From NCBI GenBank assembly GCA_963733915.1, contig CAVTEP010000003.1, forward strand, positions 3,757 through 67,756: a stretch of 64,000 bases of DNA. Direction: 5' to 3'. The notes below the pieces were generated by a model. The model ran no database searches. It had not been told where the DNA came from and saw nothing but the letters and a program-made list of their open reading frames with translations. Origin of the DNA: Candidatus Sulfomarinibacteraceae bacterium (GTDB lineage: Bacteria > Acidobacteriota > Thermoanaerobaculia > Thermoanaerobaculales > Sulfomarinibacteraceae). Positions 6,490 through 61,442 of this stretch are shown piece after piece; positions within the stretch are counted from its first letter, which is position 1; each line of letters begins with the position of its first letter. The position numbers were made by a program, and so were the translations under genes.

Positions 6490-8418
6490 GTGGCCATGAT
6501 CGCGATTACCGACCTCAGCAAGGCCTACGGCGCCCAGACCCTCTTTGACGAGGTCAACCTCCAGCTCAACCCAGGCTGTCGCTATGGGCTGGTCGGCGCC
6601 AACGGCTCCGGCAAGAGCACCATCTTGAGGATCATCGCCGGCACCGAGGAGCCGAGCGGCGGCGCCGTCTCACTCCCAAAGCGCCTCCGCGTCGGCGTCC
6701 TCGAGCAGGATCATTTCCGCCTCGAGGACACTCCGATCCTCGATGTGACGATGATGGGCCACCAAGAGTTGTGGCGAGCGCTGGCGGAAAAGGACCGCAT
6801 CCTCGAGGCCTCGGCGGAGCACTTTGACGGCGAGCGCTACGCCGAGGTCGAGGACCTCGTTGTCAGTCTCGACGGTTACAGCTTCGAGGCTCGCGCCGGT
6901 GAGATCCTCGAGGGACTCGGCATCCCGAGCGAACACCACCGACGGCCGCTGGCGACCCTCTCCGGCGGTTTCAAGCTGCGCGTTCTCCTCGCCCAGGTGC
7001 TGGCCGCGGACCCCGGCTGCCTGCTCCTCGACGAACCCACCAACCACCTCGACATTCTGTCCATCAGGTGGCTCGAGAAGTTTCTCGCAACCTATCGCGG
7101 TTGCGCTCTCGTCGTCTCCCACGACCACCGATTCCTCGACAACGTCTGCACCCACATCCTCGATATCGACTACGAGACGGTCACGCCCTACACCGGCAAC
7201 TACACGGACTTCACCGCCGCCAAGGTGGCGAATCGTGAACGCAAGGAGGGCGAGATCGCGCGCCAGGAAAAGAAAATCGCCGAACATCGGGCGTTTGCCG
7301 ACCGCTTTCGCGCCAAGGCGACCAAAGCGCGCCAGGCGCAGAGCAAGCTCAAGCAGATCGACCGCATCGTCATCGAGAACCTTCCCAGATCGTCACGCCG
7401 CTACCCGGTATTCCGATTCCGCCAGCGCCGCCCGAGCGGCAAGGAAGCGCTGCGCTTGAAGGGCATCAGCAAGTCATTCGGCGACAACAAGGTGCTCTCC
7501 GACGTCGGGCTTCGGGTCCGGCGCGGCGACCGTCTCGCCATCATCGGACCCAACGGGATCGGCAAGTCGACCCTGCTCAAAATCGCGGTCGGAGACCTGC
7601 CGCCCGACGCCGGCGAGGTTCGTTGGGGCCATGAGGTCCGCGCCGGTTACTTCGCCCAGGACCACCGGCAGGCGTTCAAGGGAAGCGACGCCACCGTCGA
7701 GAGCTGGCTCGGGGCGGCCTGCGGAGGCGAAAGCATTGGCGCGGTCCGCAATCGACTCGCTCAGGTGCTGTTTTCAGGCGACGAAGTCGAGAAGCGGCTC
7801 TCCAGCCTGTCCGGCGGCGAAGCGGCGCGGCTGATATTCGCAAAGCTCGCGGTCGACCAGCCAAACGTCCTGGTCCTTGACGAGCCGACCAACCATCTCG
7901 ATCTCGAGGCCATCGAGGCCCTGGTTGCCGCCATCGACGCGTTTGACGGAACGCTGATATTCGTCTCCCATGACCGGTGGTTCGTTTCCAAGCTCGCGAC
8001 TCGCGTGCTCGAAATCACCAAAGACGGGATCAACGACTACCCGGGAACATACGACGACTACCTGGCGAGCTGCGGCGACGACCACCTCGACGCCGACGCC
8101 GTGCTGCTGCGGGTCAAACGGGAGCGCAAGGCCAAGGCGTCCACCCGGCCAACCACTGAGAGTGCCCCCGACCGCGCCGAAATCAGGCGTCGCAAGGAGC
8201 TTTCGCTGCGGCGGGATGTGGTGACCGCCGCCGTCGAAAGCGCCGAGACGAGGATCGAGGAGATCGACCAGGCGTTCTGCGCGCCCGGTTTCTTCGACGA
8301 GACCGCGGAGTCAAAGATCCGCTCGATGCAGCAGGAGCGGGACAAGCTCGCCATCGACCTCGAAAAACTCATCGCCGAGTGGGAGCAGATCGAGGCAACC
8401 CTTGAATTCGAGTGTTGA
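6490..8418 (+). CDS. ABC-F family ATPase (two ABC domains plus C-terminal coiled coil; YheS/Uup-like)
   Basis: ORF 6490..8418; GANGSGKST, LSGGFKLR, LLLDEPTNHLD, GPNGIGKST, LSGGEAAR, LVLDEPTNHLD; start GTG 6490 or ATG 6496. Confidence 0.9.
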   Translation: MAMIAITDLSKAYGAQTLFDEVNLQLNPGCRYGLVGANGSGKSTILRIIAGTEEPSGGAVSLPKRLRVGVLEQDHFRLEDTPILDVTMMGHQELWRALAEKDRILEASAEHFDGERYAEVEDLVVSLDGYSFEARAGEILEGLGIPSEHHRRPLATLSGGFKLRVLLAQVLAADPGCLLLDEPTNHLDILSIRWLEKFLATYRGCALVVSHDHRFLDNVCTHILDIDYETVTPYTGNYTDFTAAKVANRERKEGEIARQEKKIAEHRAFADRFRAKATKARQAQSKLKQIDRIVIENLPRSSRRYPVFRFRQRRPSGKEALRLKGISKSFGDNKVLSDVGLRVRRGDRLAIIGPNGIGKSTLLKIAVGDLPPDAGEVRWGHEVRAGYFAQDHRQAFKGSDATVESWLGAACGGESIGAVRNRLAQVLFSGDEVEKRLSSLSGGEAARLIFAKLAVDQPNVLVLDEPTNHLDLEAIEALVAAIDAFDGTLIFVSHDRWFVSKLATRVLEITKDGINDYPGTYDDYLASCGDDHLDADAVLLRVKRERKAKASTRPTTESAPDRAEIRRRKELSLRRDVVTAAVESAETRIEEIDQAFCAPGFFDETAESKIRSMQQERDKLAIDLEKLIAEWEQIEATLEFEC

Positions 8419-8546
8419 GTTTTGAGTGTTGAGTTTTGAGTGTTGAGTTCTGAGTTGTCCCCACCCACCCTGATCGTCCCGAGAACGGCGGAAACCCCCG
8501 AAAAACCTCCGCAACTCAAAACTGAAAACTCAAAACTCAAAACTGA
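8410..8546. repeat. tandem-unit hairpin element E2: (GAGTKTT)x7, C-rich core, (AACTSAA)x5
   Basis: 8410-8458 gagtgttgagttttgagtgttgagttttgagtgttgagttctgagttgt overlaps the ABC-F stop codon (8416-8418); core starts ccccacccaccc; 8513-8546 aactcaaaactgaaaactcaaaactcaaaactga is the reverse complement family. Confidence 0.85.
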
Positions 8547-8555
8547 CGCCGATTC

Positions 8556-9818
8556 CTATCGGCGTCTCACCGCGTGCATGGTGAAGCCGTCACCATCGAG
8601 GTGGGGCAGGATTCGGACCCCTCCGGCAGACGTCGGGATCCACGGCACGCCTGCGGGCAGGGCCGGCTCCAGGCTTTCGATCCGGAAACCCGGTGGGAGC
8701 TCGGACACGACGCCCTCGTTCTCCTCGGGCTCCACCGAGCAGGTCGCGTAGAGGAGCGCTCCGGCCGGCGCAAGGAGGTCGAGACCGCTTCCGAGCAGCC
8801 GCCGCTGCAGCTTCGCCATCTCGCTCACTGACTCCGAACGCAGCCGCCACTTGATCTCCGGGTGGCGCCGGAGAGTCCCGGTTCCGGTGCACGGCGCGTC
8901 AATCATGACGAGGTCCCACGCGCCTGAGGGAAATGGTGGGGCCGTCGCGTCGGCAGCTACGACCTCACACCCGCCCGCTCTTGCGAGCGTCCGGCGCATG
9001 AGACACACCCTGCCGAGGCTCAGGTCAGACGCCACCACCCGCTCCCAGGCGCCGAGTCTCGCCATCAGCGCCGATTTTCCACCCGGAGCGGCGCACAGAT
9101 CGACCAGCCTGGCGCTCGGAGCGGCGATTTTCCGCGCCACCTGCGCGGCCAGCTGCGAGCTCGGGTCCTGGGCGTAGGCGGCACCGGACTTGACCGATCG
9201 AATGAGGCGTGGAGTATCCGCCGGCGCCGACCAGGCCCCGGGACACCATGGGTGAGCCTGCAAGTCGACGCCGTCGTCGACCAACTCGGACCGCGCGCTC
9301 TCGTCGAAAAACCACACCCAGGTACCGGCGGGTTCCTGGGCCGCCGACATCGCCGACTCAGCGCCTTCGGCGCCGAAGTGGTCGGCCCAGCGGCGATACA
9401 GCCACTCGGGATGAGCGAGCCGAACATCAATCGTGGAATCGGTGAGCGCCTCGCGCCAGCCTCCGGTCGCCTTGCGAAGCACCGCGTTGACCATCCCTGA
9501 CGCCGACGATCGACCCAAACGCCGTACGGTGCGGACTGCCGTGTCCGTCGCCAGGGCCGGCGGCAATCCCAGCCGCATCGTTTCGACAAGCCCGAGCCGC
9601 AGCGCCGCCCGCACCTCGGCGTCCAGTCCCTCGAGTTCTCGTCGGCACAGCGGCTCCAGCACGGCATCCAAGGCCCGCAGCCAGCGCAGAGTTTCGAGGA
9701 CGCGCACGCGAGCCGCCGGCGCCCCACCTCCGGACAACAGCCTCGACGCGAAGGCGCCGTCCTCGACGCGCATGAGCATGCGCGCCGCGGTGATCCGATC
9801 AGCCGAAAGCCTCGCCAC
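8556..9818 (-). CDS. rsmB: 16S rRNA (cytosine967-C5)-methyltransferase
   Basis: ORF 8556..9818; NusB-like N-domain, DLCAAPGGKS, IDAPCTGTGTLRRHPE, YATCSVEPEENE; downstream of fmt as usual. Confidence 0.85.
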   Translation of the reverse strand: MARLSADRITAARMLMRVEDGAFASRLLSGGGAPAARVRVLETLRWLRALDAVLEPLCRRELEGLDAEVRAALRLGLVETMRLGLPPALATDTAVRTVRRLGRSSASGMVNAVLRKATGGWREALTDSTIDVRLAHPEWLYRRWADHFGAEGAESAMSAAQEPAGTWVWFFDESARSELVDDGVDLQAHPWCPGAWSAPADTPRLIRSVKSGAAYAQDPSSQLAAQVARKIAAPSARLVDLCAAPGGKSALMARLGAWERVVASDLSLGRVCLMRRTLARAGGCEVVAADATAPPFPSGAWDLVMIDAPCTGTGTLRRHPEIKWRLRSESVSEMAKLQRRLLGSGLDLLAPAGALLYATCSVEPEENEGVVSELPPGFRIESLEPALPAGVPWIPTSAGGVRILPHLDGDGFTMHAVRRR

Positions 9819-13487: not shown

Positions 13488-13864
13488 GCCGATGGATCGT
13501 CCATTCGCACGCAGGCTTCAACGCGCGCCACGCCCTGGCCCGCTACCGCGGCCAGCCCGAGACCGCTCACGACCACCGGTGGCGGGTGGCCGTGCGGGTC
13601 GGCGCCGACGCCCTGACCGACGAAGGCTACGCCCTCGACTTCCACCAGGTCCACGAGATTCTGACCGGCGCGGTGGCCGTCCTCGACGGCGGCGACCTCA
13701 GCCACCATCCCGAGATCGGCCGGCCCTCGCCGACCGCCGAACGCGTGGCCGAGGTCCTCGCTGAACAGCTCGCGCCGCGTTTCGCAGATCTTGGCGGTCG
13801 GCTGCTGTCGGTCAGTGTGTGGGAGGGCGAGGACAATCGGGTCGATTTGATTCTCGATCGATGA
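13484..13864 (+). CDS. 6-pyruvoyl-tetrahydropterin synthase / QueD-like protein without any cysteine
   Basis: in frame of ORF 13220..13864; GTG at 13484 overlaps the upstream TGA (GTGA); FNARHAL, AHDHRWRV (HxH zinc motif), DFHQV, PTAERVA; no Cys in 126 aa. Confidence 0.65.
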   Translation: MSRWIVHSHAGFNARHALARYRGQPETAHDHRWRVAVRVGADALTDEGYALDFHQVHEILTGAVAVLDGGDLSHHPEIGRPSPTAERVAEVLAEQLAPRFADLGGRLLSVSVWEGEDNRVDLILDR

Positions 13865-13865
13865 A

Positions 13866-14370
13866 GGCTATGGGGCTATGTGGCTGTGGGGCTATGGGGC
13901 TATGGAATTGACAAGCGGCTTGGCGCCTAGGGTGAGAACGAATCGCGTTTCTGTATGAACGCGGCAAGGGCGGCGGCAGTGCGCCCGTGCAATTCACCGA
14001 GAACCGAAGAAGTCTCGTCGCTCAGGTATCCCAATCTGGACGAAAGCGCAATCAAATACCCCTACTCTCGGAGAGAGCCAAATGCGATATCCAAAAACCG
14101 ATTGAATTCAGTTTCCGTGCGGCGGCCGCATCCCTCCACGAAATTGGGCGCCACAGAAACGGCACTTCGTCGTGCCTGGCTCACCAAGCCGTAAAGTCCC
14201 TCTTTCGGGAAATTGTTCGTCGATTGATAGACCTCAATCACAAGATCATCCGCCAACTGGAAGATCTCGAGTTTCCGGTGGTCCCTCACGATTCTCCCGC
14301 TTTACCTGTTGCGCACACGGATCGGGTCCTTCATAGCCCCATAGCCCCATAGCCTCATAGCCACTTGGCC
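13866..14370. repeat. tandem-unit element E3: (GGCTATGG)x5 and (CCATAGCC)x5 inverted arms enclosing a four-helix-bundle gene
   Basis: 13866-13905 ggctatggggctatgtggctgtggggctatggggctatgg; 14331-14370 tcatagccccatagccccatagcctcatagccacttggcc; fills the gap between the stop codons of two convergent genes (13864 and 14372). Confidence 0.9.
13927..14289 (-). pseudogene. four-helix-bundle protein (23S rRNA intervening-sequence protein family, PF05635/TIGR02436-like) interrupted by one in-frame TAG
   Basis: ORF 14062..14289 MRDHRKLEIFQLADDLVIEVY...SAVSVAPNFVEGCGRRTETEFNRFLDIAFGSLRE ends at TAG 14064-14062; same frame continues GYLIALSSRLGYLSDETSSVLGELHGRTAAALAAFIQKRDSFSP to TAG 13929-13927, total about 120 codons as normal for the family. 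Confidence 0.8.
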
Positions 14371-14371
14371 G

Positions 14372-16387
14372 TCAACCCTCGAGCGACTTGGCGACCAACT
14401 CGATGACGTCATAGGTCGCGACGCCCTCGCGGCCGAGCTCGTTCTGGGCGTCCGACAGCATGGAAAAACAGTAGGGGCAGGCCACCGCCACATTCGAAGT
14501 GCCGCTGTCTTCGAGCTGCGCAAATCGGGTCTGGTTGATGCGTTCGCCGATCTTCTCTTCGAGCCACATCCTGCCGCCCCCCGCGCCGCAGCACATCGAG
14601 GTCTCGCGGTGGAGCTCCGCCTCGCGGACCTTGATCCCGGGAATTGCCTTGAGCAGGAACCGCGGGGCGTCGTACTCGCCGTTGGTGCGGCCGAGATAGC
14701 ACGGGTCGTGATAGGCGAGGTCGACGTTGACGCTGCCCATGAGCTTGACCCTGCCCTTGCGTACCAGCTGGGCCACCAGTTGGGTCCCGTGCACCACCTC
14801 GTAGTCACCGCCGAAATCAGGGTACTCGTGGGCGAGGGTGTTGAAGGCGTGCGGACAGTTGGTGACGATCTTCTTGACGCCGTACCGGTTCATGGTTTCG
14901 ACGTTTTGTTGCGCCAGCATCTGGAAGAGATACTCGTTGCCGAGCCGGCGCGCCGCATCGCCGGTCGAGACTTCCTCCGACCCGAGGATGGCGATCTTGA
15001 TGCCGGCCTCCGTGAGGATCTTGACCAACGCCCGTGAAACTTTCTTGCCGTGGTCGTCATAGCTGCCGGGCGAGCCGACAAAGAACAGGTACTCGAAGTC
15101 GCCGCCGGCCTCGGCGGCCAGCGGCACCCCGAGATCGGACGCCCAGTTGCCGCGCTCCTCGGCCGGCATCTGCCAGGGGTTGCCGTTGACCTCGTAACCG
15201 CGGAAGGCGCTCTGCGCCTCCTCGGGAAACTCGGCCTTTTCGAGCACCAGGTTGCGCCGCATCTCGACCAATTTGTCGACGTAGGAGATGTCGAGGGGAC
15301 AGGCGCGCTCACACCAACGACAGGTCGTGCAGGCCCAGATCACATCGGGATCGACGACCAGCGGTACCAATTGGTGCTGCGACGCACGTCCGCCGTCACC
15401 CGGCGAACCGAGGATCTCGGACTGCTCTCGGTAGAGCTGGTCGCGGACGGTTTTCAAATAGAGCACCGGCTGCAGCGGTTTGTGAGTGATGGTGGTCGGG
15501 CAAAACTCGCGGCAGCGACCGCACTCGGTGCAGGTGTACATGTCGAGCATCTGTTTCCACGTGAAGTCGGTGATGGTAGCGATGCCGAAGGTGCTGTCCT
15601 CGTCGATGTTCTCGAGGTCCATGCCCGGCAGCTTGCCGGGGGCGTCGAGCTTGGCGAAGAAGACGTTGAAGATCGAGGTGTAGACGTGGAAGTGCTTGGA
15701 GTACGGCAGCTCGTTGGCGAAGGCGAAGAGGGTGATCAGGTGGATCCACCAGCTGGCGCTGTAGACGATCTGCAGGGTCGCCGTACCAAAGCCGGCGAAT
15801 GCGCGCGCCGCCAGGCTCGAAATCGGCAGGTAGGCGCCGTTGATATCACCGGCGGCGATCCGGGCGCCCTCGGCGGCGAGGTCGGTCACCATCAGGATCG
15901 CGATCAACCCGATCACCAGCCAGGCGCCCCAGCTTTGGATCACGCGCTCCTTTTTCTGGATGCCGCGTCGCCAGACGGCGAAACAAAGACCCACCAGCAC
16001 CAGCAACTCGAAAATGTCCTTGGAGAACAGATAGGCGTGACCCAAGGGCGAGTCGAGGAGCGGCAGCTCCCAACCCGCCAAGAGGCCCTCGAGGACCATC
16101 GTCACCGTGCGGACGCTGACCACCAGGAAGCCGTAGAAGATCAACAGGTGATACAACCCGGCAACCGGGTCATCAAACATCTTCTTCTGCCCGAAGGCGT
16201 AGATCATCATGTGCTTGAAACGCTCGCCGAGACGGTCGAGTCGGTTGTCGGGGCGGCCCGCCCTGAGGACCTGGAAACGCCGGCTCAGCGACAGAACGAC
16301 CGCGCCGACACCGATTATCGTGAGAACCCAGAACCAAACGACCCCGGAGATCCCCAGAAACGTCCCAGCCGTGGCGTGATGCAGCAT
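14372..16387 (-). CDS. membrane-anchored iron-sulfur oxidoreductase (DsrM/NarI-like TM domain fused to DsrK/HdrD-like 4Fe-4S and CCG domains)
   Basis: ORF 14372..16432 trimmed to ATG 16387 behind GGAGGAG; CTECGRCREFCP, CTTCRWCERACP, HDPCYLGR, MCCGAGGG. Confidence 0.8.
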   Translation of the reverse strand: MLHHATAGTFLGISGVVWFWVLTIIGVGAVVLSLSRRFQVLRAGRPDNRLDRLGERFKHMMIYAFGQKKMFDDPVAGLYHLLIFYGFLVVSVRTVTMVLEGLLAGWELPLLDSPLGHAYLFSKDIFELLVLVGLCFAVWRRGIQKKERVIQSWGAWLVIGLIAILMVTDLAAEGARIAAGDINGAYLPISSLAARAFAGFGTATLQIVYSASWWIHLITLFAFANELPYSKHFHVYTSIFNVFFAKLDAPGKLPGMDLENIDEDSTFGIATITDFTWKQMLDMYTCTECGRCREFCPTTITHKPLQPVLYLKTVRDQLYREQSEILGSPGDGGRASQHQLVPLVVDPDVIWACTTCRWCERACPLDISYVDKLVEMRRNLVLEKAEFPEEAQSAFRGYEVNGNPWQMPAEERGNWASDLGVPLAAEAGGDFEYLFFVGSPGSYDDHGKKVSRALVKILTEAGIKIAILGSEEVSTGDAARRLGNEYLFQMLAQQNVETMNRYGVKKIVTNCPHAFNTLAHEYPDFGGDYEVVHGTQLVAQLVRKGRVKLMGSVNVDLAYHDPCYLGRTNGEYDAPRFLLKAIPGIKVREAELHRETSMCCGAGGGRMWLEEKIGERINQTRFAQLEDSGTSNVAVACPYCFSMLSDAQNELGREGVATYDVIELVAKSLEG

Positions 16388-17533: not shown

Positions 17534-17623
17534 GCCATCATCCTATCTTCATCGTGGCTTCGCTATAATGCCCGCGGCTCTCGACGCACAGAGTAACAAT
17601 TGCAGGGCGAAGGGCAAAAACCC

Positions 17624-18190
17624 ATGATGGCGGTCGATCGTCAGGCCGAGGAAGAGCGTCTGATCGCTCTCATGACCGGCTACCAGAAAGGGAGCATGGA
17701 TGACTTCGAAGGGTTGTACACCGCCCTCAAACAACCACTTCTTCGCTACCTCTGGACCTTTGTCCGCAACGCGACAGCGGCTGAGGACCTCCTCCAGGAA
17801 ACGTTCTTGCAGATCCACCGCGCCCGCCAGACCTACACGCCGCCGCGGCCCGTCAGACCGTGGATCTACGCCATCACCCGGCACGTGGCGTTGATGCACC
17901 TGCGTTCGGGCCGCCGCCGCAAGGAGGTGCTCGCGGATGAACAGCTGCCCGAGGTGCCGGTGCCGCCCGAAATGGAGAAGCTGGCCGATCGCGCGACGCT
18001 GCACCAGTTCCTCTCCGACCTCCCCCGGCAGGCGCAGGAGGTCTTGATGCTGCACCACCTGCTCGGAATGAGCTTCCAGGAGATCGGTCAGATTCTCGGA
18101 GTGGCGACAGGTACTGCCAAGGTCCGATCGCATCGCGCGCTCAAGAGCCTCCGTCAACGACTCGCGGAGCACGAGGGAGGCAACGCATGA
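17624..18190 (+). CDS. ECF-type RNA polymerase sigma-70 factor
   Basis: ORF 17600..18190; region 2 DLLQETFLQIHRARQTY, region 4 MSFQEIGQILGVATGTAKVRSHRALKSLR; ATG at 17624. Confidence 0.85.
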   Translation: MMAVDRQAEEERLIALMTGYQKGSMDDFEGLYTALKQPLLRYLWTFVRNATAAEDLLQETFLQIHRARQTYTPPRPVRPWIYAITRHVALMHLRSGRRRKEVLADEQLPEVPVPPEMEKLADRATLHQFLSDLPRQAQEVLMLHHLLGMSFQEIGQILGVATGTAKVRSHRALKSLRQRLAEHEGGNA

Positions 18191-18858: not shown

Positions 18859-18892
18859 GGTCGCAATGGATCACAGACAGATGTCAGGCATT

Positions 18893-19023
18893 GAAACGTT
18901 AGAACGTTAAAACGTTCAACGTTCCCGCCCACCCCCGAGAGTTGGGTTGCTCATTCTTGTCTCGATATCACGGAACCTTCAAGAGTGGAACGTTCTGACC
19001 TTCAACGTTCTAAGGTTCTAACG
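18893..19023. repeat. tandem-unit element E4: (NAACGTTN) arms with CCCGCCCACCCCC core
   Basis: 18893-18923 gaaacgttagaacgttaaaacgttcaacgtt; C-box 18924-18936; right arm 18972-19023 ggaaccttcaagagtggaacgttctgaccttcaacgttctaaggttctaacg. Confidence 0.8.
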
Positions 19024-19091
19024 ACGTCCTCGATATCGATCGGGGCGAGTACAATGGAGCGGCTCGGGCACGACAGCCCTCAGGAGGAACC

Positions 19092-19613: not shown

Positions 19614-19620
19614 AAAAGCA

Positions 19621-19694
19621 GAGGGGAAAAGGGGAAGAGGGGAAAAGGGGACCCACCAACCCCTCTTCTCCTTTTCTCCTTTTCTCCTTTTCCC
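19621..19694. repeat. tandem-unit hairpin element E5: (GGGGAARA)x3-4, CCCACCAA, (CTCCTTTT)x4
   Basis: gaggggaaaaggggaagaggggaaaagggga cccaccaa cccctcttctccttttctccttttctccttttccc; begins 7 nt after the stop codon. Confidence 0.85.
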
Positions 19695-19726
19695 TACTCC
19701 ACTGATCACGGTTTACACTGGGACTG

Positions 19727-20749
19727 ATGCGTTTCTCTCCTGAACCGCCCGCAGTCGCCGACCCGCCATCCGCGGGCATCCTGCTTGCCAACCTCGGTTC
19801 GCCGTCAGCCGCGACTGCGGGAGCGGTACGGGCGTTTCTCCGTGAATTCCTCAGGGACCCTCGAGTCGTCGAACTACCGCGTTTCAGGTGGTGGTTGATT
19901 CGCAATTTTTTCATCCTGCCCTTTCGACCGTTTCGAACTGCCCGCGCCTACCGTCGGATCTGGACCGACGACGGCTCGCCGCTCGTGGTCATCAGCCGCC
20001 AGCAGGCGGCCGACCTCGAGTGGGAGATCGGCAGACGAGTTGACCGCCCGCTGCCAGTGTTCGCCGGCATGCGCTACGGCAAACCAACTATCGAGGCCGC
20101 GCTCGGAGTGTTGCGGCGACGCGGCTGTCGCCGGATCCTCGTCCTGCCGACCTTCCCCCAGTACTCTGCGACGACGACCGCTCCGGTCTTCGACGAGGTA
20201 GCGCGAGAGTTGTCGACCTGGCGACGGGTGCCCGAACTGAGAACAATCACCGAATACCACGACCACCCCAGCTACATCGGCGCCCTCGCCTCCAGTCTTC
20301 TCGACCAGTGGCGTGCCGGCGGCAAACCGCGAAAACTGCTGATCAGCTTCCACGGACTGCCCGTTCGCTATGCAGAGGCCGGCGACCCCTACCCCGATCA
20401 CTGTCGAAGAACTGTGACCGCCCTCGCCGGCAGGCTCGATCTCGAGTCCAAAAACATCGTCATCGGCTTCCAATCCAGATTTGGCCGTGAGCCGTGGGTC
20501 GGGCCGGACACCGCGGACCTGCTCCGGAAATGGGGTCGCGAGCACCTCGACAAGCTGGACGTGATCTGCCCGGGCTTTGCAGCCGACTGTCTCGAAACCC
20601 TCGAGGAAATCGATATTGCGGGCCGTAAGATCTTCAGCAAGGCCGGTGGCGGGAAATTCCGTTACGTTCCGGCACTCAACCGACGACCGGACCACATCGC
20701 AGCTCTCGCCGAGATCGCGATCGAGCACCTCGGCGGGTGGATTGTTTAG
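19727..20749 (+). CDS. hemH: ferrochelatase
   Basis: ORF 19727..20749; GILLANLGSP, FLREFLRDPRVVELP, LPTFPQYSATTT, SFHGLP, FQSRFG. Confidence 0.9.
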   Translation: MRFSPEPPAVADPPSAGILLANLGSPSAATAGAVRAFLREFLRDPRVVELPRFRWWLIRNFFILPFRPFRTARAYRRIWTDDGSPLVVISRQQAADLEWEIGRRVDRPLPVFAGMRYGKPTIEAALGVLRRRGCRRILVLPTFPQYSATTTAPVFDEVARELSTWRRVPELRTITEYHDHPSYIGALASSLLDQWRAGGKPRKLLISFHGLPVRYAEAGDPYPDHCRRTVTALAGRLDLESKNIVIGFQSRFGREPWVGPDTADLLRKWGREHLDKLDVICPGFAADCLETLEEIDIAGRKIFSKAGGGKFRYVPALNRRPDHIAALAEIAIEHLGGWIV

Positions 20750-20763
20750 CCCGGCCGGACTTT

Positions 20764-20808
20764 GAGGCTATGAGCTATGGGCCATGAGCTATGGGTGATG
20801 AAGCTACG
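20764..20808. repeat. single tandem-unit arm E6 (CTATGRG heptamers), no partner arm seen
   Basis: gaggctatgagctatgggccatgagctatgggtgatgaagctacg, 15 nt after hemH stop; same unit family as E3 and E11. Confidence 0.7.
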
Positions 20809-44675: not shown

Positions 44676-44854
44676 GCCCACCCTACCACCCAGGCTATGA
44701 GGCTATGAGGCTATGAGGGGCCAGCCACCTATCCATTGGCTGCAAGCGAGAGGTGTGCCCGATAGTCCCATAGCCAGGCCGCGACTCGTCACGTCGAACC
44801 CCCGGGGCGAAAACGGAAGCGGCCGATCATAGCCCTATAGCCCCAAAGCCCCTG
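44676..44854. repeat. tandem-unit element E11 (C-box, (GGCTATGA)x3 ... (YCATAGCC)x3)
   Basis: gcccaccctaccaccc 44676-44691; ggctatgaggctatgaggctatgagggg 44693-44720; about 105-nt centre; tcatagccctatagccccaaagcccctg 44827-44854 abutting the stop of the next ORF. Confidence 0.8.
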
Positions 44855-45025
44855 TCAGCGGGCCAAGGTCGTCGTGATCTCGGCGGGGTTCTTGAGCGTG
44901 CGGCGGACCGGGCAACGGTCGGCAAAGAGCGCATAGGCAATCGGCTCGTCGTCAACCGGCAGATCGAGCAATGCCGGCAAGCGGTGACCCGATTCGTGGT
45001 CAAAGGTTATTTTTCTGGTGTGCAT
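44855..45025 (-). pseudogene. 56-codon remnant resembling the N-terminus of an alpha/beta hydrolase (OsmC-fusion type)
   Basis: ORF 44855..45118 trimmed to MHTRKITFDHESGHRLPALLDLPVDDEPIAYALFADRCPV...; pattern resembles x-F-x-N-x-G-x-L-x-G-x-L-x-P...ALFAHCFTC starts; ends exactly at element E11. Confidence 0.3.
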
Positions 45026-45165
45026 TTGTTCTCCCGTTCCCATCCTCTTTTGGATCGATAGAACGCTTGAAGGATTGGATATCAAAACGCAATAACGCCT
45101 CGGTGTTATGATCCCCATGCTGTCAACCAGCCACGGAGTCCGCGGGTCAGATCTGGAGGAGGGCC

Positions 45166-46828: not shown

Positions 46829-48036
46829 CGAGTCATGAGGCCTTTCTCTGCGACGCCATTCGAACGCCCGTCGGCCGCTACGGTGGCAGTCTGGCGCAGG
46901 TCCGCACCGACGACCTTGCCGCGATTCCGATGCGGGTGCTTCTCGAACGCAACCCCGGAGTGGATCCGACGCTGATCGACGACGTGGTCTATGGCTGCGC
47001 CAACCAGGCCGGCGAGGACAATCGCAACGTGGCGCGGATGGCTCTGCTGCTCGCCGGCTTGCCGCCGGTGGTCACCGGGACCACCATCAACCGCCTCTGC
47101 GGCAGCGGTATGGACGCGATCGGGATCGCTGCCCGGGCCATCAAGTCCGGCGAGCACGAACTGGTCATCGCGGGAGGCGTCGAGTCCATGTCGCGAGCTC
47201 CCTTCGTCATGGCCAAGGCGACCACCGCCTTCAGCCGCCAGGCCGAGGTCTTCGACACCACCATCGGCTGGCGCTTTGTCAACGCGACCATGCAGAAACA
47301 GTACGGCATCGACTCGATGCCGGAGACCGCCGAAAACGTGGCTGAAGAATTCGGGATCTCCCGCGAGGACCAGGATCGTTTTGCGGCTTGGAGCCAGGCC
47401 AAAACGGCAGCGGCCATGGAGAACGGAATCCTTGCCGAAGAGACCACTCCGGTCGAGATTGAACGGCCCAAACAGGAGCCGCTCGTCGTACGTACCGACG
47501 AACACCCAAGACCCGGCACGACCGTCGAGCACCTTGCCAAGCTGAGAGCTCTTTTTCGTGCAAACGGTACCGTTACGGCCGGCAACGCATCGGGCGTCAA
47601 CGACGGCGCGTGCGCGCTGATGGTAGCTTCGGAAGAAGCCGCCGCGAAATGCGGCCTCAGACCGAGAGCGCGGGTGGTCGCGATGGCGGCCGCAGGAGTC
47701 GAGCCTCGAATCATGGGTTTCGCACCTGCTCCGGCGACCAGGAAACTGCTCGCACGGACCGGCCTGCGCCTCGACCAGATGGATGTCATCGAGTTCAACG
47801 AGGCCTTTGCGTCGCAGGCGCTGGCCGTCATACGGGACCTCGGTCTGAGCGACGACGATCCGCGGATCAACCCCAACGGCGGCGCGATCGCGCTTGGTCA
47901 CCCACTCGGAATGAGTGGTGCGCGACTGGTCACGACCGCGCTCTACCAACTCCAGCGCAGCGGCGGCAGGTTCGCGTTGTGCGCGATGTGTATCGGGGTC
48001 GGCCAGGGTATCGCCACCGTCATCGAGCGGGTCTGA
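46825..48036 (+). CDS. acetyl-CoA C-acyltransferase (thiolase, PcaF/PaaJ-like)
   Basis: frame of ORF 46675..48036, ATG 46825 (ATGA overlap); NRLCGSGMDAI, NASGVNDGA, GGAIALGHPLGMSGAR, CIGVGQGIA. Confidence 0.9.
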   Translation: MTSHEAFLCDAIRTPVGRYGGSLAQVRTDDLAAIPMRVLLERNPGVDPTLIDDVVYGCANQAGEDNRNVARMALLLAGLPPVVTGTTINRLCGSGMDAIGIAARAIKSGEHELVIAGGVESMSRAPFVMAKATTAFSRQAEVFDTTIGWRFVNATMQKQYGIDSMPETAENVAEEFGISREDQDRFAAWSQAKTAAAMENGILAEETTPVEIERPKQEPLVVRTDEHPRPGTTVEHLAKLRALFRANGTVTAGNASGVNDGACALMVASEEAAAKCGLRPRARVVAMAAAGVEPRIMGFAPAPATRKLLARTGLRLDQMDVIEFNEAFASQALAVIRDLGLSDDDPRINPNGGAIALGHPLGMSGARLVTTALYQLQRSGGRFALCAMCIGVGQGIATVIERV

Positions 48037-48039: not shown

Positions 48040-48071
48040 CGTTAAACGTTTGAACGTTAAAACCTTAGAAC
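48040..48071. repeat. single AACGTT-type tandem-unit arm E12
   Basis: cgttaaacgtttgaacgttaaaaccttagaac, 4 nt after the thiolase stop; no core or partner arm. Confidence 0.65.
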
Positions 48072-48123
48072 TTTTCGGTGCTATCATCTTCCGACCGGCC
48101 ACAGATTCGGGAGGTGAGTGATC

Positions 48124-49542: not shown

Positions 49543-49673
49543 CCCACCACCCGTCTGGATAGAGGGCACCGGGCACGGAGTTCAGGTCCCACCCGCCCAG
49601 CATCTCTTGGTCCTGCACCCTCTGTCCTGCGCCCTGTACCCTGCATCCTGTATCCGGGTGTATCGGTGGGCGG
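49543..49673. repeat. tandem-unit hairpin element E13 filling the whole stop-to-stop gap
   Basis: cccaccacccg 49543-49553; left arm ggatagagggcaccgggcacggagttcaggtcc 49557-49589; cacccgccc 49590-49598; right arm ggtcctgcaccctctgtcctgcgccctgtaccctgcatcctgtatcc 49609-49655; cggtgggcgg 49664-49673. Confidence 0.8.
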
Positions 49674-50276
49674 TTATTCCCCGAGGTCGAAGGGGATCCT
49701 GATCTCGCTTTCGGGCTGGTCGATCCCGAGAGTCCACCGTCCGGCCTGAATACCACCCGGAATCTTGAAGAAGAGGCGGCCGAAGCAGGCCCGCTTGTCG
49801 TTGACCGAGACCTCATCAAAGGAGACGCCCTGTCCAGGTGCGACAAAGAACTGAATCGAGCATTCGACTCGGCTCTGCGGGAAGTAATCCAGCGGATCGC
49901 GATCGACGCCCGCCGCCGCGATCATCGGCCGCAGAGCTCCGTACGCTTCGTTGAACTCAGCCTGGGTCGGCAGGTGCACGGTCGCGCCGCTTGGCGAGCG
50001 CACGAATACATCTTTCCGAGTCACCTTAGCGACCTGACCGGCGGGCGAACTCAGACCGATTTCTAGGATCATCCACTCTTCGCCCAGCTTTGAGTTGGTG
50101 AATCGGTAGCCGAGCACGGTCCACAGCTCCGGCCCAGACTGCTGGAGGACGTACTGACCGAGCCTCTCCACGCCCGGAGTGTCAGTCGGGGTGGCGGTGG
50201 AGCACCCGTTGATGGTCACGACGATCAGCAGCAGCGCCGTCATGGTCAGGATCGATTTCAGAATGGTCGGTTTCAT
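49674..50276 (-). CDS. hypothetical lipoprotein
   Basis: ORF 49674..50948 trimmed to MKPTILKSILTMTALLLIVVTINGC lipobox (ATG 50276); upstream part of the long ORF is antisense to ilvE and not protein-like. Confidence 0.6.
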   Translation of the reverse strand: MKPTILKSILTMTALLLIVVTINGCSTATPTDTPGVERLGQYVLQQSGPELWTVLGYRFTNSKLGEEWMILEIGLSSPAGQVAKVTRKDVFVRSPSGATVHLPTQAEFNEAYGALRPMIAAAGVDRDPLDYFPQSRVECSIQFFVAPGQGVSFDEVSVNDKRACFGRLFFKIPGGIQAGRWTLGIDQPESEIRIPFDLGE

Positions 50277-52584: not shown

Positions 52585-52758
52585 CAAGCCCGAGCCCGTT
52601 ACCGTTGCCGAAGATTGGGGTTCTTCTCAGGGATCGACCACTACGAAATAGAGCGCAATCTGGTACACGTCGAGCTTCTCGAAGTCGAAGAACATGAAAA
52701 TTTCCTTCTCAGGAGGCGTATGGTATCGGTAACGGCAACGGTAACGGGCTCGGGCTTG
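52585..52758. repeat. element E14: perfect 26-nt inverted repeat built of hexamer units, enclosing a four-helix-bundle gene stub
   Basis: caagcccgagcccgttaccgttgccg 52585-52610 and cggcaacggtaacgggctcgggcttg 52733-52758 (exact reverse complements), extra cggtaa unit 52727-52732. Confidence 0.9.
52627..52695 (-). pseudogene. 22-codon N-terminal stub of a four-helix-bundle (PF05635-like) gene
   Basis: GAAGGAAA then ATG at 52695; MFFDFEKLDVYQIALYFVVVDP stop; matches family N-terminal pattern F-x-x-L-x-V-W/Y-Q-x-A; stop lies 16 nt from the left arm. Confidence 0.55.
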
Positions 52759-54414: not shown

Positions 54415-54665
54415 GCAATTCTCACCGCGTCGCTGGGTGATACCTGAACACGCGGGCGTTGGAAAACGGCCAGCTCATAACCAGACCCGCAACTCTACTC
54501 AGGGGCCGAAGCGAAGAGTGCGAGACGTCGTGCGATGTGGCGATTTCGCGGTGTGAGCGAGGGAGGCTTACTCGGAGCGTACGTCACACCGAGCGAACAC
54601 AAGAAAGCGCCGCAGCGTGCGGCGTACCGCGCTCTGCAGCCGGCCCCTGAGGAAAGATGCGGGTC

Positions 54666-54693
54666 AAGAAAAGCCCGGCCGGTTGGCCGGGCT
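54666..54693 (-). terminator. intrinsic terminator candidate (minus strand)
   Basis: agcccggcc ggtt ggccgggct with aagaaaa on the plus strand, i.e. stem-loop followed by UUUUCUU on the minus strand. Confidence 0.6.
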
Positions 54694-54756
54694 GATATTC
54701 GAATCGGGAGGGCTGGTTCCGCCAAAACGGTAGGATCAAAACGATGGGATGATCTT

Positions 54757-54784
54757 GGCTGGCCTTAAAAGGTTGGCCTATTTT
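54757..54784 (+). terminator. weak intrinsic terminator candidate (plus strand)
   Basis: ggctggcc ttaaaa ggttggcc tatttt; stem needs three G-U pairs. Confidence 0.35.
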
Positions 54785-58734: not shown

Positions 58735-59532
58735 TCACGGTTTCGGCCAACCGTCACCGACACCGAAAAGAACCCGAAAGCCGGCCGTGGAGCTCAGAGC
58801 GACCTCCTCGACCGGCTTTTTCCATTCCTCTGCCAGGCGGCGACCGATGAGGGGTACGTACGCCGGTTCGTTCTCTCTGCCCCGATGGGGAACCGGAGCA
58901 AGGTACGGGCTATCCGTTTCCACCAGGACGCTTTCGGGTTCGAGCACCGCCACGATCGCGCGGATATTTTCAGAATTCTTGAATGTCACCATTCCTGAAA
59001 TACCGACCCAAAGGCCCATCTCCACCACCTGTCGGGCTGCCTCCACGCCCTCTGTGAAGGAGTGACAAACTCCTCGCAGGCGGCCCTTGCGTTCTTCCAA
59101 CATCGAAATGAGGTCAGGCCACGATTCCCGATTGTGCAGCACGACCGGCAAGTCCATCGCGATCGCGAGATCGAGCTGCCAGGCAAGCGCGGCCAACTGG
59201 TCCTCACGCGGCGAGTTCAGGTAGTGGTAGTCGAGTCCGATCTCGCCCACTGCAACCACGGTCGCCCGCTCGCACGCCTTTTCGATGAGGCGTTTCATCG
59301 ACGCATCGAGCGAGTCGGCCTCGTGGGGATGAACGCCCGCCGCCGCCACGACCCGATTCGGATGATCTTCCGCAAGGCCGAGGGTGAGGTCGATATCGTC
59401 AGGGCCGGTGGCTGGCGTAAGGATTCCGGCGACTCCGGCACCCGCAGCGCGATCCAGGACGCCGGCAACCTCGTGCTCATCGAACATGCTGAGATGGGCG
59501 TGCGAGTCGATCCAGATCATTGTCTCGGTCAT
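58735..59532 (-). CDS. tatD: TatD-family metal-dependent hydrolase (DNase)
   Basis: ORF 58735..59532; WIDSHAHL, GEIGLDYHY, VLHNRE, HSFTEG, ETDSPYL. Confidence 0.9.
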   Translation of the reverse strand: MTETMIWIDSHAHLSMFDEHEVAGVLDRAAGAGVAGILTPATGPDDIDLTLGLAEDHPNRVVAAAGVHPHEADSLDASMKRLIEKACERATVVAVGEIGLDYHYLNSPREDQLAALAWQLDLAIAMDLPVVLHNRESWPDLISMLEERKGRLRGVCHSFTEGVEAARQVVEMGLWVGISGMVTFKNSENIRAIVAVLEPESVLVETDSPYLAPVPHRGRENEPAYVPLIGRRLAEEWKKPVEEVALSSTAGFRVLFGVGDGWPKP

Positions 59533-59598
59533 GACGGGAGTCTACAGCATCGTTAGAACGTTAAAACGTTGAACGTTAGAACGTTTGGCTTATCCGGG

Positions 59599-59695
59599 AT
59601 GGCGAGAAATCGAGGTTCGGAAGGCCCGGTTGGCCCGCATTATTCATGAGGTCTCGTCGCCCTCGCGACGAAACCCGGTGAGATATGCGGTTTAG
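59599..59695 (+). pseudogene. N-terminal stub of a four-helix-bundle (PF05635-like) gene
   Basis: ATG 59599 followed by one extra G, then frame 59600-59695 reads WREIEVRKARLARIIHEVSSPSRRNPVRYAV stop; resembles family N-terminus (x-D/E-L/I-E-V-W-x-K-A-x-x-L-A-x-x-I-Y); stops where the next repeat block begins. Confidence 0.45.
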
Positions 59696-60037
59696 CCGCT
59701 GCCGCTGTCCCTGCCCGGTCCCTACCCGCCGTTGCAACGGATCGGACCACCGGTATCGGAGACGGGTGGTCCCCTTTTCCCCTTTTCTCCTTTTCTCCTT
59801 TCCCCCCCTTCCTCATCAGGGAGGGCGGGTGAAACGTTCGGTTCATCCGGAATTTGATGGGATCGAGTTTTGGAAGTTCCGATCAGCTAACCCAGCGACA
59901 GGAACAGCGACACACCGCAGGGGCAGTGAACAGCGGCCGAGGCAGCGACCGCGGCAGCGACCGGGGCAGTGAGCAGGGGTCGTGACGACGGCATGTTCAA
60001 GCCGGGTCGTTCAGTGCGAGAGGTAGCCGGTGGGCAC

Positions 60038-60093
60038 CCGATGTCAAGGGCAAGCCGGGCCGAGGGCCCGGTGCGATGCACCCTTGACATCGG
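60038..60093. repeat. 13-nt perfect inverted repeat with inner hairpin, upstream of the intact four-helix-bundle gene
   Basis: ccgatgtcaaggg (60038-60050) ... ccgggcc gag ggcccgg (60055-60071) ... cccttgacatcgg (60081-60093); right half contains TTGACA. Confidence 0.75.
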
Positions 60094-60118
60094 CCGCCTC
60101 ACCGGCTCGAGGAAGGGC

Positions 60119-60493
60119 ATGAACGACCCGGCGTTGAACATGTCCGACGCGCGTACGAACCCCAACCTCGTTGCCCACTCGAAGGCCCTTGACGCGGCTG
60201 GCATTGCGATCAAGCTCGTGATGAGGGTTCCAGCCCCATTGAAATCGATCGCCGATCAGGTGATCCGGTCGGCAAGCTCGGTCCCGGCCAACCTGGCGGA
60301 GGGGCACGGCCGGGCCGGAAGAGACCGGCAACACTTCTGGAGGATCGCCTACGGCTCAGCCAAGGAGGTCGACAGCCACCTTCGCCTCCTGGTTCAGGCT
60401 GGTGCCGTTGATGGACGAAGCGCCACGACCGCACTCGATACCTTCGATCAAGTCCGCGCCATGACCTGGCGCTTGCTCAACCCAAACACCTGA
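60119..60493 (+). CDS. intact four-helix-bundle protein (23S rRNA intervening-sequence protein / Avd family, PF05635/TIGR02436-like)
   Basis: frame of ORF 59969..60493, ATG 60119 (or 60140); ...SIADQVIRSASSVPANLAEGHGRAGRDRQHFWRIAYGSAKEVDSHLRLL... matches the family core Q-x-x-R-A/S-x-x-S-x-x-x-N-x-A-E-G ... A-x-G-S-x-x-E. Confidence 0.8.
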   Translation: MNDPALNMSDARTNPNLVAHSKALDAAGIAIKLVMRVPAPLKSIADQVIRSASSVPANLAEGHGRAGRDRQHFWRIAYGSAKEVDSHLRLLVQAGAVDGRSATTALDTFDQVRAMTWRLLNPNT

Positions 60494-60716
60494 TCGGCGT
60501 TCTCCGCGCCGGTCCGGCCGGGAGTTGTCGCGGTCAACTGTCCCTGACGCGGTCCACGGCCGCTGCCGCCGTCCCTGACCGCCGCCCCTGACCGCCCGTC
60601 CAACGGATGCGACCAACTCCGTCGGGGACGGGTGGGTGGAAAATCCGAATTCCGAAATTGAAGAGTTGACACCCCACGCAATTCCGGAAGACCCAAACGT
60701 TCCAACGTACAAACGT

Positions 60717-61442
60717 TTAACGACTCTCTTGCCGGGCGACCAACATTGCGCCGCCGACCACGGCGGCAGTCTCGGATCGGAGTACGTGATCGCCGAGCCG
60801 AAGCCGCGGCCAACCGTAACGGACGAAGAGCTGTTGCTCCACTGCGGTGAACCCGCCTTCAGGACCAACCGCCAACAGTCGGCCGGCGTCCGCGGGAATG
60901 TCTGCAACTGCTCCACCGTCGTGATCGGCGACAACCCCGCCTCCTAGCGGCGACTCCCGTTCGATCAGCTCCTCCAGAGACGCGATGTCCGCGACCTCCA
61001 TTGCCCATGCACGGTGGCACTGCTTGAGCGCCTGCATCGCGATGCGGCGCCAGTGGTCGACTCGAGTCTCGCGCCCGCGGCGAAGGGCCTGGGCGAGCTC
61101 GGCATCGATCGGCAGCAGGCGCCGCACCCCGATCTCGACCAGTTTTTGAACGGCCCAGTCCATCGGCTGGTTGCCGACCATGGCGAGAGCGACCGCTACG
61201 CCGTCGGCGAGCGGCTTTGGCTCCCGCCGCACCGATAAGATCTCGACCTCGACCTTGCCCCCGCCAACGGCGACCAGCTTTGAATCGGCGACCGCGCCGA
61301 GACCATCAATGAGAACAACCTCGTCACCTCGGCGACGCCGCAGTGGACCTGTGAGATGGTGGGCTTCAGCGGGATCGAGCGTCAAAGTGCGTCCGACTTC
61401 GAGGCTCTGAGCCGGTGCAAGTAGCCACGGTGGAGACTTCAT
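60717..61442 (-). CDS. rsmE: 16S rRNA (uracil1498-N3)-methyltransferase
   Basis: ORF 60717..61478 trimmed to MKSPPWLL; PUA-like N domain, GPEGGFT, LRLGDHVLRSETA; its last codons and stop lie inside the AACGTT arm. Confidence 0.8.
   Translation of the reverse strand: MKSPPWLLAPAQSLEVGRTLTLDPAEAHHLTGPLRRRRGDEVVLIDGLGAVADSKLVAVGGGKVEVEILSVRREPKPLADGVAVALAMVGNQPMDWAVQKLVEIGVRRLLPIDAELAQALRRGRETRVDHWRRIAMQALKQCHRAWAMEVADIASLEELIERESPLGGGVVADHDGGAVADIPADAGRLLAVGPEGGFTAVEQQLFVRYGWPRLRLGDHVLRSETAAVVGGAMLVARQESR

Follow-up and report, generated by a model that had tools for sequence, protein, structure and literature searches.

The 64,000-nt stretch of a Candidatus Sulfomarinibacteraceae genome analyzed here (contig CAVTEP010000003.1, positions 3,757 to 67,756; hereafter, the window) has a G+C content of about 64% and an ordinary chromosomal housekeeping gene content, including ABC-F, rsmB, hemH, cystathionine lyase, GDH, thiolase, dnaJ, prmA, and rsmE. 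Much of the space between these genes is taken up by palindromic elements with arms of short tandem repeats, which together amount to about 3.4 kb, or about 40% of the intergenic DNA of the window, and which lie preferentially at stop codons. Genes were called by a codon-usage method of our own and checked with Pfam, which backs the identity of the genes flanking the elements, and arrays were called by Tandem Repeats Finder. In GTDB (one genome per species), the nearest ABC-F neighborhoods belong to metagenome-assembled genomes labeled Thermoanaerobaculia or Candidatus Sulfomarinibacter(aceae), with 74 to 81% identity, the top ABC-F match among the representatives being 81% (L048), or 80% over the full length. 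No transposase, reverse transcriptase, or repetitive extragenic palindrome (REP)-associated tyrosine transposase (RAYT) was found among the 58 Pfam-scanned open reading frames (ORFs) of the window, which also contains no match to rRNA or another Rfam family and no tRNA genes at the elements.

The elements are palindromes, each with outer arms of 3 to 10 tandem copies of a 7- or 8-nt unit, and at least seven distinct units occur within the 64 kb (TTGAGTT, AATTCCT, GGCTATGG, AACGTTNN, AGGGGAAA, AAGAGTC, and GGATNCA). The copies are contiguous and head-to-tail; a clustered regularly interspaced short palindromic repeat (CRISPR) array was ruled out because the repeats have no unique spacers between them. 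A frequent inner stem places a C-rich block opposite a G-rich block (CCCACCC...GGGTGGG or CCCACCC...GGGTGGGCGGG), and CCCACCC is enriched 7.4-fold in intergenic DNA. On the strand read from the neighboring gene inward, the arms hold more G than C. The inverted pairs lie tens of nucleotides apart in E1, E2, E4, E5, E7 to E11, and the 62368-62458 element; the loops are either short or hold a gene of the PF05635 family, which E3 and E15 have and the other 14 elements lack. The stems of the elements that lack this cargo are 25 to 40 bp long, and the hairpin folds of most elements beat those of shuffled sequences (z = -2.2 to -6.8). The elements and their associated features are as follows.

E1, 6316-6470: left arm (TTGAGTT)x5 at 6316-6352, core CCCGACC...GGGAGGGCGGGGG at 6353-6394, right array (AATTCCN)x10 at 6395-6470, with its end 11 nt 5' of TATCCT (part of TGCTATCCT) and 25 nt 5' of the ATG of ABC-F at 6496; fold -49 kcal/mol, z = -4.0; orthologous arrays in relatives.
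E2, 8402-8544: left arm (GAGTGTT/GAGTTTT)n at 8402-8456 with the ABC-F stop (TGA 8416-8418) inside it, core with CCCCACCCACCC, and (AACTCAA)n at 8513-8544 as the right arm, which leaves 11 nt to the rsmB stop; z = -5.5.
8545-8566, minus strand: GC-rich hairpin spanning the rsmB stop, with the U-rich arm of E2 next on the minus strand.
E3, 13862-14374: cargo-bearing; arms (GGCTATGG)n at 13865-13905, directly after the PTPS stop (TGA 13862-13864), and (CCATAGCC)n at 14332-14371, which runs up to TCA 14372-14374, the convergent stop; duplex of the two arms -74 to -84 kcal/mol, with both flanking stops within degenerate outer units; inverted repeat of 52 nt (13853-13904 and 14332-14383), with the two TGA stops at equivalent positions.
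13930-14289, minus strand: PF05635/TIGR02436 four-helix-bundle gene (23S rRNA intervening sequence [IVS] protein) in E3, with one in-frame stop at 14062-14064.
E4, 18891-19024: AACGTTNN arms, core CCCGCCCACCCCC; z = -2.2; starts 32 nt 3' of the stop of an NrsF-like gene.
E5, 19620-19695: (AGGGGAAA)n / (CCTTTTCT)n hairpin with loop CCCACCAACC, 6 nt 3' of the rubrerythrin stop and 31 nt 5' of the hemH ATG; -47.4 kcal/mol, z = -4.1.
E6, 20763-20798, plus strand: lone array (GCTATGA/GCTATGG)n, 13 to 16 nt 3' of the hemH stop.
E7, 23877-24011: AACGTTNN arms, core CCCACCCC...GGGTTGGGCGGG; the cystathionine lyase stop (TGA 23883-23885) lies in the first AACGTT-type unit.
E8, 26531-26670: AACGTTNN arms; z = -3.7; right end 3 to 6 nt from the stop of a MacB-like gene at 26674.
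E9, 32458-32640: nested; (AGGAATT)n / (ATTCCTA)n as the outer arms, together with CCCCACCC / GGGTGGGCGGG, the acyl-CoA dehydrogenase stop (TAG 32461-32463) within the outer stem; inner element at 32509-32596 with arms TTCTCAAT / ATTGAGAA; whole fold -84.9 kcal/mol, z = -6.4.
E10, 35526-35607: TTGAG-type arms, core CCCCCCGCCCC...GGGTGGGCGGGGG, the stop of a TerB-like gene (TGA 35528-35530) in the left arm; z = -3.2.
E11, 44675-44854: C-rich block CCCACCCTACCACCC, then (AGGCTATG)x3 ... (CATAGCCC)n; z = -2.7; starts 1 nt after the stop of a SurA-like gene at 44674.
E12, 48040-48074, plus strand: lone AACGTTNN array, 4 nt past the thiolase stop (TGA 48034-48036), followed by TGCTATCAT; kept in the relative L174.
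E13, 49543-49673: the whole gap between TAA 49540-49542 and TTA 49674-49676; outer stem CCCACCACCC ... GGTGGGCGG, inner 7-mer arrays of the GGATNCA / TGNATCC type.
E14, 52585-52758: perfect 26-nt inverted repeat of 6-mers with 122 nt between its two halves, located in a divergent gap; z = -6.8; a related but distinct kind.
E15, 59549-60722: composite with cargo; AACGTTNN arrays in opposite orientations at 59549-59604 and at 60677-60722 (78% over 46 nt as inverted copies), the left arm 18 nt 5' of the TatD ATG and the right arm covering the rsmE stop (60717-60719).
60158-60493, plus strand: second PF05635/TIGR02436 gene, the cargo of E15, in an ORF open from 59969.
62368-62458: (AAGAGTC/T)n / (CTTGACT)n hairpin, 74 nt from the stop of dnaJ on one side and 53 nt from the start of prmA on the other, additional to the elements of the initial annotation; -39.7 kcal/mol, z = -6.1.

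The initial annotation had placed eight of these elements (E2, E3, E7, E9, E10, E12, E13, and E15) in contact with, or within a few nucleotides of, the stop codon of a neighboring gene, and a reading of every junction in the sequence confirmed all eight positions. The minus-strand ORF that bounds E13 is real, with conserved 200-aa homologues at 65 to 90% identity. Arrays are enriched near stops within the window: 15 of its 25 have a stop no more than 20 nt away, compared with 5.0 expected for random intergenic positions and 7.0 after shuffling within the array's own gap (p ≤ 0.0002). Arrays near start codons are not enriched (2 observed versus 4.7 and 2.5 expected). When 16 related loci were added, 39 of 101 arrays were stop-proximal (16.5 and 22.3 expected by the same two models). 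Some elements stand off the stop, namely, E4 (32 to 35 nt), the left arm of E8 (38 nt), and the 62368-62458 element (74 nt). Since convergent gaps without an element can be as short as 15 nt or less, the filling of whole stop-to-stop gaps is partly a geometric necessity. A barrier role, in which arrays close all three reading frames, was rejected as the main cause of the placement: only 12 of 41 stop-side arrays do so inward and 6 outward, and 13 contain no stop triplet.

Comparison of orthologous gene pairs, which the initial annotation had suggested, revealed that the sites in relatives nearly always hold a hairpin at the same position. At the 3' end of ABC-F, an array stands at the stop in about 14 of 16 relatives, with at least six unit types among them; these arrays usually begin two codons past the last conserved residues, the cores are homologous in L004, L006, L010, and L044, and the units vary by single substitutions spread throughout the array (GAATTCG, GATTTCG, and AATTTTG). 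In all nine family-level metagenome relatives compared at hemH (L081 to L089), the gene has a hairpin or a repeat element next to it, on one side or on both, some with arms of other units and some as plain palindromes. The PTPS-CCG gap has GGCTATGG / CCATAGCC arms both in the window and in L013 and AATGAGGC / GCCTCATT arms in L006, both arms having switched together around the conserved gene. The E13 site was compared with that of L173, L174, and L177, relatives with flanking-protein identities of 90, 85, and 82%, and in all four genomes its hairpin is 0 nt from each stop. Conservation extends to the outermost GGATAC...GTATCC; inside it, the arrays are GGATTCA versus GATACTC, and one relative has a plain hairpin. 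Plain hairpins in the place of repeat-armed ones are carried by L177, L087, and L089. Copy numbers differ even among close relatives (3 versus 6 units in the arms of E13, 4 versus 5 in E12). The outer units are degenerate and conserved, while the inner units are homogeneous and turn over; outward growth of the arrays until coding sequence constrains them is contradicted by these conserved, degenerate outermost units and young inner ones. The outer boundary and the hairpin are thus kept while the inner arrays change, showing that the boundary at the stop is old, that turnover inside it proceeds by slippage, and that the arms stay complementary. The relatives with occupied sites share 60 to 90% protein identity with the window; no clean pair of an empty and a filled site was found at the orthologous sites compared, and no target-site duplications are visible at the junctions read. 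The elements look like long-resident intergenic palindromes amplified in the lineage, not fresh insertions.

The elements are specific to Sulfomarinibacteraceae-like Acidobacteriota. In the window and the Sulfomarinibacteraceae-like loci, there are 23.3 period-7 and 12.8 period-8 arrays per 100 kb, versus 1.1 and 1.5 in a contrast set of 1.16 Mb from other Acidobacteriota and unrelated genomes, so that the overall density is about 36 versus about 2.7 per 100 kb; arrays of periods 6 and 9 are not enriched in the Sulfomarinibacteraceae-like set. Arrays are present in 25 of 44 convergent gaps (57%), 15 of 45 divergent gaps, and 29 of 177 tandem gaps. Only 7 of 111 filtered arrays lie inside called genes, 5 of which look like coding-sequence repeats, and at least one genic array (L006 9952-9981) is due to a miscalled start. 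The arrays are also polar: read inward from the nearest gene end, 80 have more G than C and 14 are opposite, and within 30 nt of the gene end the ratio is 55 to 2.

The two cargo genes connect the elements to a wider set of loci. The protein encoded in E3 and E15 has as its closest solved structure 2GSC, XCC0516 of Xanthomonas. The in-frame stop of the E3 cargo, in the context GSLRE*GYL, falls in a region across which the intact orthologues of L013, L006, and L004 align; it could mean that the gene is a pseudogene or that the stop is read through, or it could be a sequencing error. Inverted 7- to 8-nt arrays occur on both sides at 9 of 10 independent PF05635 loci and on at least one side at all 10, beginning 0 to 9 nt past the upstream stop, with a different unit at every locus. 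The lineages covered are Sulfomarinibacteraceae-like Acidobacteriota, Terriglobales, Binatia, Planctomycetes, Verrucomicrobiales-type contigs, and unclassified contigs (six in all), and the further loci are as follows.

L061: Terriglobales.
L161: Binatia.
L163: Planctomycetes.
L165 and L171: Verrucomicrobiales-type, pheS-pheT.
L168: uvrB-purD.
L170, L172, and L179: further PF05635 loci.

The arm duplexes of these cassettes reach -40 to -108 kcal/mol, and the cassettes of other phyla sit equally flush behind stops, even within operons (pheS-pheT). Some arm families of E3 and E15 recur in elements that lack cargo. The latter might have arisen from E3 or E15 by internal deletion, but no similarity to E3 or E15 was found beyond the arrays. 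Neither the window nor the 10 cassette loci for which gene tables were read contain a reverse transcriptase domain, as expected of an Avd-like diversity-generating retroelement.

Some features of individual cassettes may be recorded here. On either side of the E15 cargo lies one copy of a direct repeat, about 77 nt long and 77% identical (59695-59769 and 60559-60635), that contains 13-nt tandem units GTCCCTGACCGCC, and 12-nt repeats CAGCGACCGAGG lie directly 5' of the cargo gene at 59931-59969; in L012, the direct and 12-nt repeats have an identical arrangement. In the PTPS-CCG gap of L044 (about 17600 to 18000), a unit of about 45 nt (containing ctgtcatcccgaccgagggagtgaagcctgttccctct) is repeated in tandem three to four times inside a repeat-armed element, and these copies occupy the place that the PF05635 gene has in other relatives. 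Most PF05635 homologues were found on contigs shorter than 2 kb, and that of L170 ends in a (CCATAGC)x8 array (5366-5420); the arrays probably break short-read assemblies. The 122-nt interior of E14 contains a short minus-strand ORF, MFFDFEKLDVYQIALYFVVVDP followed by a stop. Its peptide, MFFDFEKLDVYQ..., may resemble the N terminus of the four-helix-bundle family, but because neither Pfam nor a hidden Markov model of our own gave a match, we do not claim E14 as a cassette remnant.

The position of the elements raises the question of transcription termination. No U-tract follows any element stem, and the flanks are the reverse of those of a terminator, with a U-rich 5' side and an A-rich 3' side, the 5' arm being G/U-rich and the 3' arm C/A-rich. 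Matches to a terminator consensus are near the shuffle expectation (18 versus 13.0, 17 versus 10.8, and 20 versus 15.5), and no element hairpin is itself a match, by which canonical terminators were rejected. Of the elements, only E2 takes part in a terminator-like arrangement, in which its arm forms the U-rich tail of the separate hairpin at 8545-8566. A 546-nt convergent gap without a repeat hairpin contains three good canonical terminator candidates.

54672-54693, minus strand: terminator candidate.
54608-54624, minus strand: terminator candidate.
54757-54778, plus strand: terminator candidate.

These candidates imply that the organism can use ordinary terminators.

The initial annotation had offered two explanations for the placement at stops, a role as 3'-end structures or an insertion preference for the region just past them, and this interpretation is partly supported. 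The former agrees with orthologous hairpins that start at the stop with both arms changed, but the terminator anatomy it allowed for is absent, and there is no sense-strand G·U bias; the latter has in its favor the recurrence of units and of the TGATAAGGA core motif at non-orthologous loci and the equally flush cassettes of other phyla, but the window can be explained without it, given sites that are filled in nearly all relatives, conserved outermost units, and no target duplications or transposases among what was read. The explanation that we tentatively put first, with slightly less than even confidence, is that the elements are old, lineage-amplified hairpins acting as double-stranded RNA structures at transcript 3' ends or processing sites. 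In line with it are the hairpin folds, the clade-specific distribution, the enrichment and polarity near gene ends, the conserved positions with covarying arms, the PF05635 association, and the published Coxiella and Xanthomonas precedents. The element would be cotranscribed with the gene running into it, the arms would pair as an RNA duplex of at least 25 bp beginning at the stop codon, and this duplex would mark or process the transcript end; it might be cut by RNase III, by analogy with rRNA IVSs, or it might instead block exonucleases and read-through. In convergent gaps, such a duplex could act in both directions, and the flush placement would reflect a compact genome in which the 3' untranslated region is the hairpin.

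Several observations weigh against this 3'-end role. The arms could also be kept complementary by arm-to-arm gene conversion at the DNA level. Folding gives no sign of selection at the RNA level, since it shows no bias to the sense strand, which has the better stem in 5 of the 11 elements of tandem gaps and in 3 of the 9 cassettes, and the E13 fold is no better than that of shuffled sequence (z = -1.0). Unpaired arrays exist (E6, E12, and those 5' of ABC-F in several relatives), some arrays adjoin promoters and not stops, arrays also lie close 5' of start codons (the right array of E1, 25 nt from the ABC-F ATG, and the left arm of E15, 18 nt from that of TatD), and neither the polarity rule nor the restriction to periods 7 and 8 is explained. 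The dispersal of the elements, discussed next, also counts against it.

The elements could, on a view that we consider unlikely, be nonautonomous mobile elements resembling MITEs (miniature transposable elements with inverted repeats), which insert preferentially just past stops or into hairpins and of which the PF05635 cassette is the full-length form. Unit families recur at nonorthologous loci within the 64 kb (AACGTTNN at 6 sites, GGCTATG at 3, and GAGTTTT at 3), E7 and E8, on the two sides of one gene, have 73% identity over 121 nt, and in relatives (CTCCNCTG)n arrays are preceded by the TGATAAGGA core motif at no fewer than four different loci; these three observations point to dispersal. 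The arm families shared by E3, E15, and cargo-less elements, the nesting in E9 and in L009, and the cassettes wedged into operons of other phyla fit the same view. It has to contend with the lack of any transposase, RAYT, or reverse transcriptase among the window ORFs scanned, of visible target-site duplications, and of an empty-versus-filled pair, with conserved boundary units at orthologous sites that are filled in almost all relatives despite 60 to 90% protein identity, and with loops that are mostly unrelated among copies of one family. We give still less credence to a neutral origin, in which intergenic hairpins are lengthened by slippage of 7- to 8-nt units that escape mismatch repair and are symmetrized by template switching (quasipalindrome correction), the arrays being functionless and deletion bias stripping all other spacer. 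Mrazek's polymerase-slippage idea for heptamers, as cited in PMC4692102, is in line with it, as are the copy-number differences at E13 and E12, the single substitutions spread through the ABC-F arrays, the degenerate outer and homogeneous inner units, and the lack of a folding strand bias. It leaves unaccounted for, however, the polarity near gene ends (55 versus 2), the recurrent CCCACCC / GGGTGGG inner stem with its intergenic enrichment, the restriction to one Acidobacteriota family, the cross-phylum PF05635 association, and the long persistence of hairpins at the same sites.

Noncanonical bidirectional terminators or roadblocks, consisting of a G-skewed tract prone to R-loops or G-quadruplexes and then a stable hairpin, seem improbable. 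The preference for convergent gaps (57% occupied) and a polarity that is the same for both incoming directions would suit them, and so would the U-rich tail that E2 supplies to the GC-rich hairpin at the end of rsmB; moreover, the units with GGGG (GGGGCTAT and AGGGGAAA) resemble the quadruplex-forming GGGAATC arrays of Xanthomonas (PMC4692102). However, G-runs are confined to these two units and are absent from TTGAGTT, AACGTTNN, AATTCCT, and AAGAGTC, most units do not have a quadruplex-type G-tract of the GGGNATC kind, U-tracts are missing behind stems whose flank polarity is reversed, canonical terminators occur elsewhere in the window (54608-54778), and elements lie inside operons that need cotranscription (pheS-pheT in the cassette relatives, groES-groEL and atp genes in Xanthomonas).

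The TGATAAGGA motif and other repeats of the relatives (L004, L006, L008, L010, and L044 at the ABC-F flanks, as well as L001, L007, L012, and L013) can be described further. The form TGATAAGGA(G) contains two stop triplets and then a Shine-Dalgarno-like AAGGAG, and the (CTCCNCTG)n arrays are pyrimidine-rich. It was located at the following positions.

L007: 18191 and 20361.
L008: 18339.
L013: 9867.
L081: 2998.
L084: 944.

The other seven TGATAAGGA matches in 2.35 Mb fall in unrelated genomes and look like chance. Other dispersed intergenic repeats include a REP-like sequence, GGCACCTCCGCCGCACGCG, and the motif AAACCGCAGATCACGCAGATAGA. In L004, L006, and L044, a single composite element is present both upstream and downstream of ABC-F, the two copies being inverted; L008 and L010, compared in part, share ABC-F-flank arrays.

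Three genes have a TGnTAnnnT or TAnnnT box 6 to 8 nt 5' of the ATG.

6479-6498: ABC-F, TGCTATCCT.
19712-19729: hemH, TTACACT.
59530-59550, minus strand: TatD, TGTAGACT.

The boxes are kept in relatives, with the repeat arrays stopping 8 to 15 nt upstream of them, and they look like extended -10 promoters of leaderless mRNAs. The GDH upstream region differs, having TGCTATCAT (48075-48090) and then a leader of about 30 nt with GGAGGTGA. The gene 5' of E1 (5775-6297) is seemingly split over two frames, one ORF covering 5775-6293 and the conserved C terminus FWYTRDMFD* lying in the frame that ends at TAG 6295-6297, which may be due to a frameshift or an assembly error. A short ORF of about 57 aa (44855-45026, minus strand) adjoins the right arm of E11; it may be an N-terminal fragment of a larger hydrolase-type gene.

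With bidirectional intrinsic terminators, the elements share a stable hairpin directly past the stop that is common to convergent genes, but they differ in the missing 3' U-tract, the reversed flank polarity, and far longer stems (25 to 45 bp). They resemble MITEs such as Correia, Nezha, and the Coxiella QMITEs in being short, intergenic, and nestable, with terminal inverted repeats and no transposase; unlike MITEs, they show no target-site duplication at the junctions read and have no related transposase gene in the window, their sites are fixed across relatives, and their arm sequence varies. The REP elements of enterobacteria and pseudomonads, with their BIME and REPIN forms, are abundant extragenic palindromes behind stops, often in convergent gaps, with a proposed role in stabilizing or modulating upstream mRNA; each is a single 20- to 40-nt palindrome whose sequence is conserved within its family and which is served by a cognate RAYT transposase. 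In the present elements, the arms are tandem arrays of at least seven units in 64 kb, and similarity between copies is limited to the arrays. Heptamer repeats fall within a wider class that includes the long simple-sequence repeats reported by Mrazek in 2007 and the short tandemly repeated repetitive sequences of cyanobacteria.

The closest published counterpart is the GGGAATC heptamer arrays of Xanthomonas, which lie within 50 bp of stops or overlap the ORF, the corresponding Nostoc unit being GGGGAYT (Rehm et al. 2015, PLoS One, PMC4692102). Their G-rich strand is sense downstream of genes and antisense upstream, 70 to 75 inverted pairs lie 21 to 67 nt apart, and positions are conserved between species while lengths vary (PMC4692102). 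The present elements are a much more diverse variety of this phenomenon: they likewise consist of intergenic, stop-proximal tandem 7-nt units that form inverted pairs, with the G-rich strand reading away from the gene, but they have many unrelated and mostly nonquadruplex units of periods 7 and 8, a CCCACCC / GGGTGGG inner stem, and nested and cargo forms, and they belong to another phylum, the Acidobacteriota. Array #15 of Xanthomonas lies 6 nt from bccP and overlaps the start of XCC0516, itself a PF05635 gene (Table A of PMC4692102), a paper that draws no connection to PF05635 or to IVSs. A literature link between repeat arrays and either of them was not found in the library searched, which was incomplete, and as far as could be checked, the link to PF05635 cassettes and rRNA-type IVSs is undescribed.

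The IVSs of 23S rRNA, which are generally excised by RNase III and sporadically distributed (PMC11270868), provide the other counterpart. That of Coxiella measures 428 to 444 nt, contains an S23p ORF, has a 28-bp terminal stem that is cut by RNase III, and was inherited vertically after sporadic acquisition (PMC4990558). As in the IVSs of Coxiella, Leptospira, and Salmonella, a terminal inverted-repeat stem encloses a loop that is empty or holds an S23p/PF05635 ORF, and the sizes are similar (about 430 to 520 nt for an IVS with its ORF, 426 nt between the arms of E3); unlike IVSs, the present elements lie between protein genes and not in helix 25 or 45 of 23S rRNA, and their stems are made of tandem repeats. 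It is conceivable, and in our view rather doubtful, that repeat-armed hairpins are the nonribosomal form of rRNA-type IVSs, forming a multiphylum class that occupies mRNA spacers from the stop onward, with or without PF05635, and is processed as double-stranded RNA; the Xanthomonas and cyanobacterial heptamers would be included, and the arms would be the target of the PF05635 protein or a requirement for it. Three long-unexplained things, namely, gene-adjacent heptamer repeats, the origin of rRNA IVSs, and the function of the very widespread PF05635 proteins, meet in the window and its relatives in one anatomy of repeat arms, a stem, and an optional PF05635 gene, with its start at a stop codon, and a lineage in which such a structure fills about 40% of the intergenic DNA opens the way to concrete tests. 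On the practical side, the arrays probably break metagenome assemblies and can mislead gene callers at gene ends.

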